From a virus: a stretch of 64,000 nucleotides of DNA. The notes beneath the pieces are model-generated. The model did not search any database and had not been told where the DNA came from. It saw nothing but the letters and a program-made list of their open reading frames with translations. The DNA is taken from the IMG/VR virus record IMGVR_UViG_3300030339_000025; one strand, 5' to 3'. Shown one piece after another: positions 60,019-64,000 of the stretch. Made by a program: the position numbers and the translations under genes. The number at the start of each line of letters is the position of its first letter. Positions within the stretch are counted from its first letter, which is position 1.

Positions 60019-60216
60019 ATGACTACATCTAGACCATTTACATTTAATTCTGGTACAACAATTCCAGGCACATTACAAGTTGGATATATTGCAGTTTTAA
60101 CTGGTGTAACAAATTTAAATGCTGCTTCTTGGTGGATGGGTCCAGACGAAGATCCAGGCTATATAATTGCTGTTCCCCGGGACTCAATTACCCATCAAAT
60201 TATACCTTGGCCATAG
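60019..60216 (+). CDS. N-terminal domain fragment paralogous to start of 62638 gene (split from RCC1 gene)
   Basis: FNSGTTIPGTLQVGYIAVLTGVTN..WWMGPDEDPGYI vs paralogue FNTGSTIPGTLQVGNIAVSTGVTN..WWMGPDEDPGFI. Confidence 0.45.
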   Translation: MTTSRPFTFNSGTTIPGTLQVGYIAVLTGVTNLNAASWWMGPDEDPGYIIAVPRDSITHQIIPWP

Positions 60217-60284
60217 TTTAAATAAATTTCTATACCTAATAGAGTTTATATTTTTTATATATAATAAAAAATATATATAAATTA

Positions 60285-62609
60285 ATGTCTATTAATCCAT
60301 CTTTCTGGCGTTCTAGTGGTAAAACTGATGATTCGTTTTTAACAATTGTTAATAAAGCATTTCATACTAATTTACCAACAGCGTTATCTGCTAAAACTTG
60401 GCTTGATTCAATGGGATATTATACAAATTTTAATTATATTATTCCTCCTATTCTTCCTTTTTTAATTTCCGCTGGATCTCAAAAATCTTTTTATGATAAT
60501 AATGGTGCAGTATGGGGTTGGGGCTATAATACTTTTGGACAATTAGGAGATAATACAACAACATCAAGATTAACACCAGTATCAATATTAGGCACAAATA
60601 AGACTTTTTGTAAAATTTTTGCAGGTTCTAATAATGCTGGAGGAATAGATAAAAATGGCCAAGTATGGTGCTGGGGGTATAATGATAGAGGACAATTAGG
60701 AGATAATACAGTAATAGATAAATATTCGCCAGTATCAATATTAGGTGCAAAAAAAACCTTCTGTAATATTTCGACTGGAGGCTCACATACAATTGGAATA
60801 GATAAAAATGGTCAAATATGGGGCTGGGGTTATAATAATAAAGGTGAAATAGGAAATAATTCAAGATTATTCAGATGTACACCAGTATCAATATTAGGTG
60901 CTAAAAAAACATTTTGTAATATTAGTGTCGGTGTATCTTACACAACTGGATTAGATAAAAATGGTCAAGTATGGGGGTGGGGTAATAATTATTCTGGTCA
61001 ATTAGGAGATAATAGTTTAACTAGTAAATGTACACCAGTATCAATATTAGGTACTAAAAAAACATTTTGCAATATTGCAGCTGGTATTTCTCATACAATT
61101 GGAATAGATAAAAATGGATTAGTGTGGGGTTGGGGGTACAATAATCATGGTCAATTAGGAGATAATAGTACAATAAATAGATGTACACCAGTATCAATTT
61201 TAGGCACTAAAAAGACTTTTTGTAAAATCACTGGAGGGGATATTCATACAATGGGAATAGATAAAAATGGATTAGTATGGGGGTGGGGAAGTGATCAATA
61301 TGGTCAATTAGGAAATAAAGTATACCTTATTCAAGGAGGAGATGATAAACGTACACCAGTATCAATATTAGGTAATAAAAAAACATTTTGCAATATTGCA
61401 GCTGGTCAAAATTTTACAATAGGAATAGATAATAATCGTTATATATGGAGTTGGGGGTATAATCAATATGGTCAATTAGGTCTATTGGGTATTACTGCAT
61501 TGAGTTGTTTTTGTACCCCAGTATCAATATTAGGTGTTAAAAAAACATTTTGCAATATATCATCCGGATCTTATCATACAATAGGAATAGATAAAAATGG
61601 ATTAGTTTGGGGTTGGGGTAATAATCAATATGGTCAAATAGGAAATAATTCAGATCAAACTAATATATATACTCCAATATCAATACAAGGCATAAAAAAG
61701 ACGTTTTGTAAAATTATGAGTGGTCAAAATTATACAATAGTAATAGATAAAAATGGATTAGTTTGGGGCTGGGGCAGTAATGGTGCTAGTCAATTAGGTG
61801 ACAACACAGGAATAAATAGATGCACACCCGTGTCAATTTTAGGCGCTAAAAAAACTTTTTGCAATATTTCTGCACATAATGGAAATAATGTAATGGGAAT
61901 AGATAATAAAGGTCAAGTATGGGGCTGGGGTTATAATAATAATGGCAAATTAGGAATTAATTCAATAATAAATAAATGCACACCAGTATCAATATTAGGC
62001 GCTAAAAAAACTTTTTGTATTATTGCTGCAGGTAACAATCACACAATGGGAATAAATAATAGAGGTCAAGTATGGGGATGGGGGTATAATAATAATGGTC
62101 AATTGGGAATTAATTCAATAATAGATAAATGTACACCAGTATCAATATTAGGCGTTAAAAAAACATTTTGTAAAATTACTGCTGGCAATAATTATACATT
62201 GGGAATAGATAAAAATGGATTAGTGTGGTGTTGGGGTAATAATAATTATGGACAATTAGGAGATAATTCATTATCAGTAAGATGTACTCCAGTGTCAATA
62301 TTAGGCGTTAAAAAAACATTTTGTGAAATTTCTGCAGGATATAATAACACTGGCGGAATAGATAAAAATGGTCAAGTATGGGGCTGGGGTTATAATTATT
62401 ATGGTCAATTAGGAGATAATTCAAACGTGTCAAGATTAACACCAGTATCAATATTAGGCACTAAAAAGACTTTTTGTAAAATTTATTTTTCTATAAGTAC
62501 TACAATAGCAATGGATTATAAATATCAAATATGGGGTTGGGGCAATAATAATAGCCTTACATTGACTGCTATTGATACAACAACGCCAATTAGAGTTTAT
62601 AATTTTTAA
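60285..62609 (+). CDS. RCC1-repeat beta-propeller protein (~14 repeats)
   Basis: repeated ~50-aa units NGQVWGWGYNxxGQLGDN...TPVSILG.KKTFC.I.AG..HT.GIDK. Confidence 0.7.
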   Translation: MSINPSFWRSSGKTDDSFLTIVNKAFHTNLPTALSAKTWLDSMGYYTNFNYIIPPILPFLISAGSQKSFYDNNGAVWGWGYNTFGQLGDNTTTSRLTPVSILGTNKTFCKIFAGSNNAGGIDKNGQVWCWGYNDRGQLGDNTVIDKYSPVSILGAKKTFCNISTGGSHTIGIDKNGQIWGWGYNNKGEIGNNSRLFRCTPVSILGAKKTFCNISVGVSYTTGLDKNGQVWGWGNNYSGQLGDNSLTSKCTPVSILGTKKTFCNIAAGISHTIGIDKNGLVWGWGYNNHGQLGDNSTINRCTPVSILGTKKTFCKITGGDIHTMGIDKNGLVWGWGSDQYGQLGNKVYLIQGGDDKRTPVSILGNKKTFCNIAAGQNFTIGIDNNRYIWSWGYNQYGQLGLLGITALSCFCTPVSILGVKKTFCNISSGSYHTIGIDKNGLVWGWGNNQYGQIGNNSDQTNIYTPISIQGIKKTFCKIMSGQNYTIVIDKNGLVWGWGSNGASQLGDNTGINRCTPVSILGAKKTFCNISAHNGNNVMGIDNKGQVWGWGYNNNGKLGINSIINKCTPVSILGAKKTFCIIAAGNNHTMGINNRGQVWGWGYNNNGQLGINSIIDKCTPVSILGVKKTFCKITAGNNYTLGIDKNGLVWCWGNNNYGQLGDNSLSVRCTPVSILGVKKTFCEISAGYNNTGGIDKNGQVWGWGYNYYGQLGDNSNVSRLTPVSILGTKKTFCKIYFSISTTIAMDYKYQIWGWGNNNSLTLTAIDTTTPIRVYNF

Positions 62610-62637
62610 TAAAAAATAATGAATATCTTAATAAATT

Positions 62638-64000
62638 ATGGGAACATATAGACTTTATTCTTTTAATACAGGATCAACAATTCCAGGAACTTTGCAAGTA
62701 GGAAATATTGCAGTTTCAACTGGAGTTACTAATTATTCCACAAATAATGTTGCTTGGTGGATGGGTCCAGATGAAGATCCAGGGTTTATAACTGCTATTA
62801 CTCTAAATAGTAATCCATCTTTTTGGCGATCTAGTGATAAAACAGATGTTGCTTTTTTATATTCAATAAATAATGCCTTTAATCAAAATTTACCAACAGT
62901 AGTTTCTGCAAAAACTTGGCTTGATTCAATGGGATATTATACAACTTTTAATTTATTGTTAACTCCATCAACTACAAATATTAGTAATGAAGTTGGTACA
63001 GGTTACACTGGTGCGACTTTCACACCTAATTTAGGTTTTTATAGAAATTATGAGGCAAATAATACATTAGCATTGGCGGATTATACTGGTAGAATACGGC
63101 CAATTCAAACAGCTATAGAATTTGTAGAAACCAATCCTAGTTATATTATTTTAAGAAACGTTCCACAAATAGATGATTTATATGTACATCCAGAAAGATT
63201 TGGTTTATATAACATTACAACATTAACATACCCAGATGGTAATTTAAGTGGAATAATTTCTGCTACAAATTTGGGATCATATTCTGGTAACACTAATTGT
63301 GTTAAGTTTTTTACAACAGTTCAGTCATCAGGTTCTGTTGGTGATAAATATGGAATATATGATATTTATCCAGTTGGAACATGGAGAAATAATAATAAAA
63401 TAGTTCCATTAGGTACTGGGGGTTGGAATAGTACTTATGTAATAAGTTCAGCTGGTATGTGGAAAAAGAAAGATGGTACATATGCTATGATAGTTAATGG
63501 TTATAATGATAGTGCATTTCCTTCGGTTAAACAACATTTATTTTATTCTACTTCTCTTGTTAGTGGTGGTACTTGGGTTGATCAAAATACAACTAATGAA
63601 AATTTATTTAACTCAAATTATTTACCTTCTAATTGTTATGGCACAAATACAGTAATCGGTTGTATTGATCTAGGTGATGGTACATATGCTGGATCAACAG
63701 CATTTTTTAATGGTTCTGGACAAATAATACAAACTCCATCAATAGTGATGTGGAATGAAGATTTAACAAGAAAAGGTGCATTTAATATAATTACTGATTA
63801 TACTATTGTAAATACGTTTACTCCATATGTATCGTTAGTATTTTATAAGGGTAAATATTATTATTCATTGCATGATGGCACATATAATACAGGTAAACGT
63901 CAAGTATTGGTATCTAATTATTTAGAGGGCACTTATTCGTATCATTCTACGGTATTAGATTTTTCAGATCCACAATTCAATTTTAATGATGGTTTGATGT
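62638..64000 (+). CDS. large structural/receptor-binding-like protein, 3'-truncated by window end; N-terminus paralogous to 60019/60285
   Basis: open frame from ATG 62638 to window end with no stop; N-terminal 100 aa colinear with 60019..60216 + start of 60285 gene. Confidence 0.5.
   Translation, partial: MGTYRLYSFNTGSTIPGTLQVGNIAVSTGVTNYSTNNVAWWMGPDEDPGFITAITLNSNPSFWRSSDKTDVAFLYSINNAFNQNLPTVVSAKTWLDSMGYYTTFNLLLTPSTTNISNEVGTGYTGATFTPNLGFYRNYEANNTLALADYTGRIRPIQTAIEFVETNPSYIILRNVPQIDDLYVHPERFGLYNITTLTYPDGNLSGIISATNLGSYSGNTNCVKFFTTVQSSGSVGDKYGIYDIYPVGTWRNNNKIVPLGTGGWNSTYVISSAGMWKKKDGTYAMIVNGYNDSAFPSVKQHLFYSTSLVSGGTWVDQNTTNENLFNSNYLPSNCYGTNTVIGCIDLGDGTYAGSTAFFNGSGQIIQTPSIVMWNEDLTRKGAFNIITDYTIVNTFTPYVSLVFYKGKYYYSLHDGTYNTGKRQVLVSNYLEGTYSYHSTVLDFSDPQFNFNDGLM

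Follow-up and report, generated by a model that had tools for sequence, protein, structure and literature searches.

How does a protein domain that is continuous in one phage gene come to be divided between two reading frames in the neighbouring paralogue? The question arises in a 64,000-nucleotide (nt) stretch of viral DNA, IMG/VR record IMGVR_UViG_3300030339_000025 (hereafter the window, meaning the whole stretch), where the + strand of positions 60019-64000 comprises three open reading frames (ORFs) of 65, 774 and 454 amino acids (aa), the last still open at the window end. The sequence-only reading of this DNA had proposed two paralogous proteins with a shared N-terminal domain, broken in the first copy into a 65-aa ORF and an ORF for an RCC1-type propeller by an insert of ~110 bp. 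The duplication and the break both hold: the 65-aa ORF together with the first ~50 residues of the RCC1 ORF (copy 1) corresponds to residues 1-104 of the third ORF (copy 2), and the two heads, as we call this domain, share 78% DNA identity. We favour a model in which copy 1 is a pair of separately expressed cistrons that arose through recombination at a promoter-bearing cassette, in a variable locus where adhesin-like members of one family lie side by side; we give this model a probability of roughly 0.6. The parts of copy 1 are as follows, half A and half B being the two pieces of the head.

59983-59994, + strand: promoter-like box TTTTTATATATA (P_A), an exact match that precedes the 65-aa ORF's ATG (60019) by 24 nt and aligns to the one box of the relative L003
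60019-60216, + strand: the 65-aa ORF (ORF A), residues 1-52 being half A of the head (β1-β4) and residues 53-65 a loop; E value 1.9e-20 with a hidden Markov model (HMM) of half A
60175-60213, + strand: the loop 'ext', PRDSITHQIIPWP, 39 nt of coding sequence, the GC-richer 'ccccgggactc...' part
60211-60214 and 60297-60300, + strand: a 4-nt direct repeat, CCAT, read directly from the sequence, its copies 86 nt apart
60214-60216, + strand: the TAG stop of the 65-aa ORF, from the sequence
60217-60284, + strand: an AT-rich, non-coding intercistronic spacer of 68 nt, which holds P_B and a stop of the downstream frame
60240-60242, + strand: that stop, a TAG in the RCC1 frame, by direct reading of the sequence
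60252-60263, + strand: promoter-like box TTTTTATATATA (P_B), an exact match, 21 nt before the ATG at 60285
60285-62609, + strand: the RCC1 ORF, 774 aa, residues 1-~50 being half B of the head (β5, α1, α2; half-B HMM, E value 3.7e-14), followed by 14 blades

The split is no assembly artefact, because the same arrangement occurs, 99.98-100% identical, in three independent metagenome assemblies (L126, L127 and L128). The supposed insert fares less well. Copy 1 is indeed longer than copy 2 across the head, by 107 nt that include a stop and a new ATG, but these are not one unit: 39 nt (60175-60213) are coding loop and only 68 nt are a non-coding gap. The ATGs at 60019 and 60285 lie 266 nt apart, and the frames of the two ORFs therefore differ, so that no single polypeptide of copy 1 holds a complete A+B head. 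Scored with a start-context matrix built from 87 window genes, these two ATGs reach +3.8 and +3.9 bits (the 39th percentile of the 87 genes), compared with -5.1 ± 5.0 for all ATGs. The TTTTTATATATA motif is enriched in the window (36 occurrences at one mismatch or fewer, against 16.6 ± 5.2 expected; 0 of 100 shuffles reach 36) and stands upstream of several other gene starts as well. We thus read copy 1 as two cistrons because the frames differ, a stop lies in the downstream frame, both start contexts are normal, each start is preceded by a box, and the downstream start is kept in L003, a relative that lacks the upstream ORF. In the left copy of the CCAT repeat, CCA is the codon directly before the stop of the 65-aa ORF; in the right copy, it is a Pro codon read in the RCC1 frame. 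We interpret the repeat as probable junction microhomology.

The distal part of copy 1 is what the sequence-only reading took it for, an array of ~14 RCC1-type blades. The RCC1 ORF matches PF00415 at E 1.5e-113 (13 stretches) and PF25390 (WD40_RLD) at E 8.5e-173, and its 14 W[GCS]WG blade motifs are spaced by 51-56 aa, in keeping with RCC1/RLD propellers, which have blades of ~50 aa in multiples of seven. The protein would be expected to form two seven-bladed propellers. Within the gene, a block of ~740 nt (about five blades) is repeated (60495-61228 and 61746-62482, 77% identity), and the 14-blade array therefore grew through internal segmental duplication.

A different view, raised by the sequence-only reading, is that the ~110 nt are an intron or another element removed from RNA. 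All that speaks for it is that the domain, unbroken in the paralogue, appears to be interrupted here. Group I and group II introns are, however, longer than this segment, and an Rfam search of the insert gave no family at E≤1. Folding of the insert region produced no unusually stable structure (minimum free energy z -0.95), the sole local hairpin being a weak AU one at ~60222-60250 that begins 8 nt past the stop of ORF A; no terminator was found in 60000-60300, and no GT...AG boundaries restore the frame. Neither a conserved RNA structure nor a removal that restores one frame was found. Excision is unsupported because there is no RNA signal, because the first 39 nt are coding sequence conserved in relatives, and because the 3' part is a promoter/start region kept in L003; we find it scarcely credible. 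Read-through and simple frameshifting are excluded because the ORFs are in different, non-overlapping frames and the stop at 60240-60242 intervenes; the ORF A frame, for its part, has four further stops before 60285. Two other ideas about the insert were dropped. A search of 60170-60300 against the window with blastn-short returned short AT-rich promoter-type matches and no second copy, as a repeated element of the MITE (miniature inverted-repeat transposable element) kind would have, and a resemblance of its 5' end to a tRNA T-arm, noticed by eye, concerns the stretch that is conserved coding sequence.

The CCA codons that flank the gap are the one feature that invites a further alternative, a programmed translational bypass like that of T4 gene 60. 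Peptidyl-tRNA-Pro would leave the CCA at 60211-60213 at the TAG and re-pair with the CCA at 60297-60299, and the outcome would be one protein in which ...IIPWP is joined to SFWRSS... and the RCC1 propeller. Take-off and landing codons do match, both are in frame, the stop directly follows the take-off codon, the joined loop (VP + 13) falls within the family range, and the phage appears T4-like. Yet no stem-loop includes the take-off codon; landing would occur at a CCA 86 nt beyond that of take-off, across a coding gap of 83 nt against the 50 nt bypassed in gene 60; the downstream ORF has an ATG, a box and a start context of its own; and L003 has no upstream ORF to hop from. Moreover, recombination at a CCAT microhomology accounts for the matched codons equally well, and a chance match would be expected at roughly 5-10%. 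We hold bypassing to be very improbable.

What copy 1 has lost is best judged from copy 2, which we take to be a normal member of the family.

62638 to past the window end, + strand: the copy 2 ORF, 454 aa within the window
62638-62949, + strand: an intact A+B head of the short-loop subtype, both half-HMMs matching in order from residue 2
62950-64000 (open at the window end), + strand: the distal domain of copy 2, a fold without a match in profile searches

The ORF that the sequence-only reading placed here is present, with its start at 62638 and not at 62639. Its head, complete from residue 1, is 39-48% identical to 46 family members, and an AlphaFold2 model of it is confident (predicted local distance difference test (pLDDT) 85, predicted template modelling score (pTM) 0.72), with strands at residues 6-9, 18-21, 24-27, 51-56 and 59-64 and helices at 70-80 and 88-98. 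The break of copy 1 maps to the β4-β5 hairpin loop of this model. The distal 350 aa of copy 2 gave no Pfam, PHROG or PDB sequence match; degenerate BNR-like motifs can be seen there by eye only, and a comparison with the BNR propeller of the relative P0273 found no similarity. The three assemblies that share the locus, L126 (13793), L127 (6290) and L128 (4257), all end 52-77 nt past the window end, inside this distal domain, which suggests strain-level hypervariability or a repeat at that place.

The head itself defines a large family. It is an α/β domain of ~105-125 aa with the pattern MATxRPFAYNTGSTI...WWMGPDED...FWRS...WLNxNGYWTSY, and a profile built from five members found 1,078 cluster representatives, 874 of them at E≤1e-10; in nearly every one of the best 150 of these 1,078 hits the match begins at residues 1-8, protein lengths being 105-1574 aa. 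A second profile search yielded 1,275 proteins with the head at residue 1, every one annotated 'hypothetical protein', and the same position is occupied in 230 intact A+B ORFs from fetched loci. In IMG/VR the family occupies at least 106 loci, on contigs of up to 335 kb, with ORFs of 141-1242 aa that nearly all open M-[APS]-[TI]-x-R-P-F-A-Y-N-T-G; a few use TTG or GTG or deviate at one position. The head has no Pfam or PHROG family and no sequence relative in PDB, none of 50,697 deposited phage genomes encodes one, and its relatives all lie on contigs of uncultured phages. Behind it the tails change: Laminin_G_3 in 13 of 42, and also PA14/GLEYA, F5/8 type C, legume lectin, sialidase N-terminal lectin and Gly-rich tails, to which BFVD adds SPRY and ConA-like ones; BNR and RCC1 tails occur too, the tail survey and the second profile search having found no RCC1 tail in any member but copy 1. 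The site of the β4-β5 loop ranges from 2 to about 20 residues, most members having a long loop, the counterpart of ext in copy 1 (P0003, for example, with VPSNAVTTQV...), and copy 2 and L084/L085 forming a short-loop subtype. Two or three family genes are adjacent in about a dozen loci. Neighbours vary, from large SprB/Laminin_G proteins and glycosyltransferases in L129 and L131 to PolB, gp13 and sheath genes within 10 kb in L001.

A conserved N-terminus with variable C-terminal binding domains is thus a property of the whole family, and it is the layout of tail fibres and receptor-binding proteins. The sequence-only reading had seen such an anchor with a swapped distal domain in the two copies here; the layout extends to more than 1,000 clusters, but the head resembles no known fibre anchor in sequence or fold. 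It is plausible that the family consists of virion-surface adhesins, the head docking on the particle and the tail binding glycans or other ligands. A literature search on RCC1 propellers in virions returned nothing relevant.

How unusual is the split within this family? We scanned 212 fetched loci with separate HMMs for halves A and B, and the window phage alone, among about 230 family ORFs, has A and B in separate cistrons with a non-coding spacer between them. The other departures are L003 (order B-A), L135 and L136 (A only), L109, L119 and L120 (only the A half above the HMM threshold) and L204 (an in-frame stop). The L204 stop is a TAA at 893-895 in place of the Ser of FWRS, a site unlike the window break, on one 1.4-kb contig; a nonsense mutation, an error of sequencing or recoding may lie behind it. 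No unsplit close relative came to light: a word-index protein search gave 5 hits only, two IMG/VR scans reached at most 48% identity, no metagenome contig matched in a scan for an exact DNA pattern (0 hits), and a second metagenome scan gave instead relatives in which A and ext are fused to BNR.

Three relatives are informative. L003, found in three samples, has ~80% nt identity to the window and the order of the same tRNA gene, one box and then ATG-AVNPSLWRS, that is, a B-first start without an upstream ORF. The region of its only box (93-127) aligns to both boxes of the window, 60246-60284 aligns to the stretch directly before its ATG, and the ATG-NPS[FL]WRS start is common to the RCC1 ORF and to the L003 protein, P0001. 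The P0001 reading frame continues from the B piece into an A piece, ext loop included, and from there into a single BNR blade, after which the gene is truncated. In L136 (protein P0273, on 24 contigs) a BNR propeller is joined straight to A-ext, B being absent, and the gene is intact (366 aa, seven blades, PF15899); L135 (P0274) is likewise A-ext-BNR with no B, and its 225 aa end after about three blades. The ext loop PRDSITHQIIPWP is conserved in all three, as VPWDDVAKQIVPY in P0001, VPWDTVAHQIVPY in P0273 and VPWDTVAKQIVPY in P0274. The A-loop and B pieces behave as separable modules in this clade: split in the window, permuted in L003 and re-fused to another propeller in L136 and L135. The B-first start dates back at least to the divergence of the window phage and L003, and the border between the modules is a repeated, putatively promoter-bearing box. 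Two genes upstream of its A-ext-BNR gene, L136 carries a 414-aa TnpB/IS605 OrfB-like gene (2181-3425, - strand), and downstream (6195-9192) small paralogous ORFs, about nine in number, form an array in which each begins with MKY[LI]K and finishes with KFNI; a similar array occurs in the relative of L003.

The affinities of the pieces bear on where they came from. ORF A is 71% identical to residues 1-66 of P0273 over its full length, loop included, and 55% identical to the A half of copy 2. This suggests another history, in which the pieces are juxtaposed leftovers of two paralogues: ORF A would be what is left at the 5' end of an A-ext-BNR gene such as the one intact in L136, the RCC1 gene a 5'-truncated gene like copy 2, and their 'right' order a by-product of recombination between tandem family genes, not of the fission of one gene. 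Consistently, ORF A is nearer to P0273 (70-71%) than to copy 2, the ext loop is common only to the BNR-type genes, half B of copy 1 (B1) carries the NPSFWRS of the short-loop subtype (copy 2, L084) with a 34-nt run identical to half B of copy 2 (B2), and family genes are often in tandem. Against it, no BNR remnant was found in the window, the joint loop (VP + 17 residues before FWRS) is near the family consensus of VP + 15, and the exact complementarity of the pieces would be a coincidence. Complementarity and loop length, in short, favour the fission of one gene, whereas the kinship of ORF A with the BNR-type genes and the B1 motif with its shared run favour a mosaic. We regard the leftovers history as possible, with the odds against it; it differs from our preferred model in history only, not in present-day mechanism.

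Whether the two products still work together is a separate matter. The ratio of nonsynonymous to synonymous substitution rates (dN/dS), estimated from 50-65 codons and thus indicative only, is 0.26 and 0.33 for ORF A against P0273 and P0274, 0.14 between those two, 0.82 for B1 against the B of L003, and 0.54 for B1 against B2. Three-taxon arithmetic puts ORF A at about 0.46 on the window branch, an indication that selection there may be relaxed but not absent. One could picture a functional split domain, in which the 65-aa peptide and the half-head on the RCC1 protein re-associate non-covalently, rebuild the head and dock the propeller, the A-BNR fusions of the sister phages and the B-linker-A of P0001 being other ways of using a docking module in two pieces. 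The two parts complement each other exactly, and the cut falls in a surface hairpin loop of a single compact α/β fold; ORF A is intact, with its own box, a normal start context and a dN/dS of 0.26-0.33; and P0001 has B and A in one chain, in permuted order. Structure models point the same way, A-ext being poorly ordered without B in P0273 (pLDDT about 32-66 over residues 1-107, against >90 in the propeller) and better in the A+B model, where the A half scores about 76-87, which suggests that A needs a partner. There is also a precedent among T4-like phages, the split nrdA of Aeh1, which still assembles into an active enzyme (PMC3045599). Conversely, L003 keeps the B-first start although the upstream ORF is lost, B1 evolves nearly neutrally in comparison with L003, and P0001, which ends after one propeller blade, may be a decaying gene. 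A functional split seems to us rather doubtful. A bolder version, in which the head is by nature a two-piece module whose A and B fold only together and serve as 'plug' and 'socket' tags (free A with B-RCC1, A-BNR, and B-linker-A as a circular permutant), is unlikely in our judgement; were it true, different binding propellers could be combined or attached without a covalent link.

Overall, we suggest the following course of events. In a variable locus of a large phage, adjacent members of one family would each combine a head at the N-terminus with an exchangeable ligand-binding tail, copy 2 being a normal example. Recombination at a short promoter-bearing cassette would then have cut the head of copy 1 inside the β4-β5 surface loop. 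The upstream cistron would yield a 65-aa peptide (β1-β4 and the loop); the downstream cistron, from a new ATG 21 nt after a copy of TTTTTATATATA, would yield the RCC1 double propeller with only β5-α1-α2 of the head, and both TTTTTATATATA boxes would drive transcription. For the fate of the pieces we lean, at close to an even call, to a largely vestigial half-head on the RCC1 protein and a 65-aa ORF that is a relaxed relic.

Several observations weigh against this account. The promoters and starts were assigned from motif enrichment alone. The two pieces are exactly complementary, with nothing missing or duplicated, and an intact ORF A with dN/dS below 1 is easier to reconcile with a retained function than with a pure relic; the raised dN/dS of B1 could stem from L003 itself, whose gene is truncated after one BNR blade. 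The adhesin-like role, too, meets difficulties: fold comparison of the predicted head gave no structural match to any known anchor, PHROG profiling of 148 neighbouring ORFs revealed no recurrent family and no conserved tail-gene neighbourhood, and among the deposited genomes no cultured phage carries the head. Finally, the T4-likeness of the phage was judged from a few accessory Pfam families or genes (Phage_30_3, T4_Y16D, RNA ligase, GIY-YIG/NUMOD3).

The wider setting is that of a phage. The contig carries the T4-type accessory families just named, the RNA ligase and GIY-YIG/NUMOD3 endonuclease genes and numerous small ORFs; PhoH, PolB, gp13-like and sheath genes lie near more distant members of the head family; and the window is probably a hyperplastic region of a large, AT-rich, T4-like phage. 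A giant-virus origin, prompted by genes for ankyrin, major vault protein, VWA and sugar functions, by a GC content of ~25%, by the absence of Shine-Dalgarno sequences and by an intron-like tRNA, was set aside because Phage_30_3 and T4_Y16D lie on the same contig and the relatives of the head are all on phage contigs (with sheath, gp13 and PhoH). Gene starts in the window are A-rich, often AAAAATATAAyrTATG, and no Shine-Dalgarno sequences were seen at window genes. The AAAAATATAAyrTATG motif adjoins the start codon in at least 15 of them (e.g. 20634, 21100, 24969-, 42934 and 44981); the TTTTTATATATA box is separate from it and lies 4-25 nt before the first genes of apparent operons.

On its left the variable locus is bounded by a tRNA-like gene that is kept beside the locus in L003, its 5' half aligning to L003 ~1-60. 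This and other features of the window are listed here.

59753-59944, - strand: an interrupted tRNA-like gene (ARAGORN with -i), with an insertion of ~113 nt in or next to the anticodon arm
4249-7697, 16925-18199 and 22912-23601: a sugar-nucleotide pathway (GDP-mannose 4,6-dehydratase-like, epimerase, DegT aminotransferase) and two glycosyltransferases
12975-16250, - strand: a 1091-aa TonB-dependent/SusC-like outer-membrane protein (CarboxypepD_reg, Plug and β-barrel), GC 0.34 against ~0.25
30782-33193, - strand: an 803-aa protein with major-vault-protein shoulder (SPFH-like) and repeat domains, rare for a phage and without a PHROG match
56408-57098, - strand: overlapping small ORFs of 101 and 132 aa with the common motif L(L)RKEKLKKI

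The tRNA-like gene was missed by default ARAGORN and by Rfam. Its acceptor, D and T arms are canonical, its anticodon reads UAA (Leu) or UUA (ochre suppressor) according to the splice register, and its insertion, at 113 nt, is not long enough to be a group I intron. In L003 the loop is GTCTAA where the window has ATTTAA, which in the canonical register would give U33-CUA-A37 (amber suppressor). The TonB-dependent/SusC-like gene appears to derive from the host, and it hints at a host among the Bacteroidota. In the paired small ORFs the shared motif is C-terminal in the 132-aa member and near the C-terminus in the 101-aa member, and overlaps the start region of the next gene.

The locus offers a clean natural example of module shuffling in phages below the level of the domain: the cut falls in a surface loop, and the joint carries a promoter cassette. 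Continued association of the pieces would make it a natural docking system built on a split domain; otherwise it is a tidy and ordinary case of gene decay in a hyperplastic region. A very large, unannotated family of head domains (>1,000 clusters) from uncultured aquatic phages is now defined, and its position before lectin and propeller modules marks the head as a good candidate for a novel scaffold of the virion-attachment or adhesin kind.

How does this compare with known systems? The modular fibre and receptor-binding proteins of phages, such as the fibre adhesin mosaics of the T4 superfamily (PMC3157838), share with the head family a conserved N-terminal head, variable C-termini made of carbohydrate-binding or propeller modules, tandem paralogues and an occurrence restricted to phage contigs; they differ in that the present head has no relative in sequence or fold among known anchors, no evident shaft or trimerisation region and no conserved tail-gene neighbourhood. 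The copy 1 propeller is like RCC1/RLD propellers (PF00415/PF25390) and the phage 'regulator of chromosome condensation' PHROG families 7220, 4219 and 16766, with 14 canonical blades and very strong profile matches, and at the DNA level its gene weakly matches the RCC1 gene of Synechococcus phage S-SRM01; unlike other RCC1 propellers, it is preceded by half of a phage head domain. With the T4 gene 60 bypass copy 1 shares matched codons and a stop, but it has no take-off hairpin, a longer gap and an independent downstream start, and the arrangement is not kept in L003. T4-like phages also have genes in pieces: nrdA of Aeh1, split by mobE with halves that still assemble (PMC3045599), and the T4 topoisomerase genes 39 and 60 (reviewed in PMC2988022). 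As in these, inserted DNA in a T4-type genome divides one coding unit into two adjacent cistrons and the downstream piece gains its own start; unlike in nrdA, the inserted DNA is only 68-71 nt with no endonuclease, and the split protein is a non-essential accessory and not an enzyme. The promoter-early stem-loop (PeSL) cassettes, which mediate indels and module swapping in T4-like hyperplastic regions (PMC2839356, PMC4122927), supply the remaining parallel. Here too a short promoter-type repeat borders an indel between related phages, L003 having one box and the window two boxes and ORF A, and small variable genes surround the locus, together with a tRNA gene and a GIY-YIG/NUMOD3 gene. The present cassette differs in lying inside a protein domain, where it makes a new start codon, and in having no convincing stem-loop or terminator. 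By analogy, the logic of the border would be the same as in PeSL cassettes. Modular shuffling in phages is thus familiar; what is new is this variant of it, in a very large and hitherto undescribed protein family.

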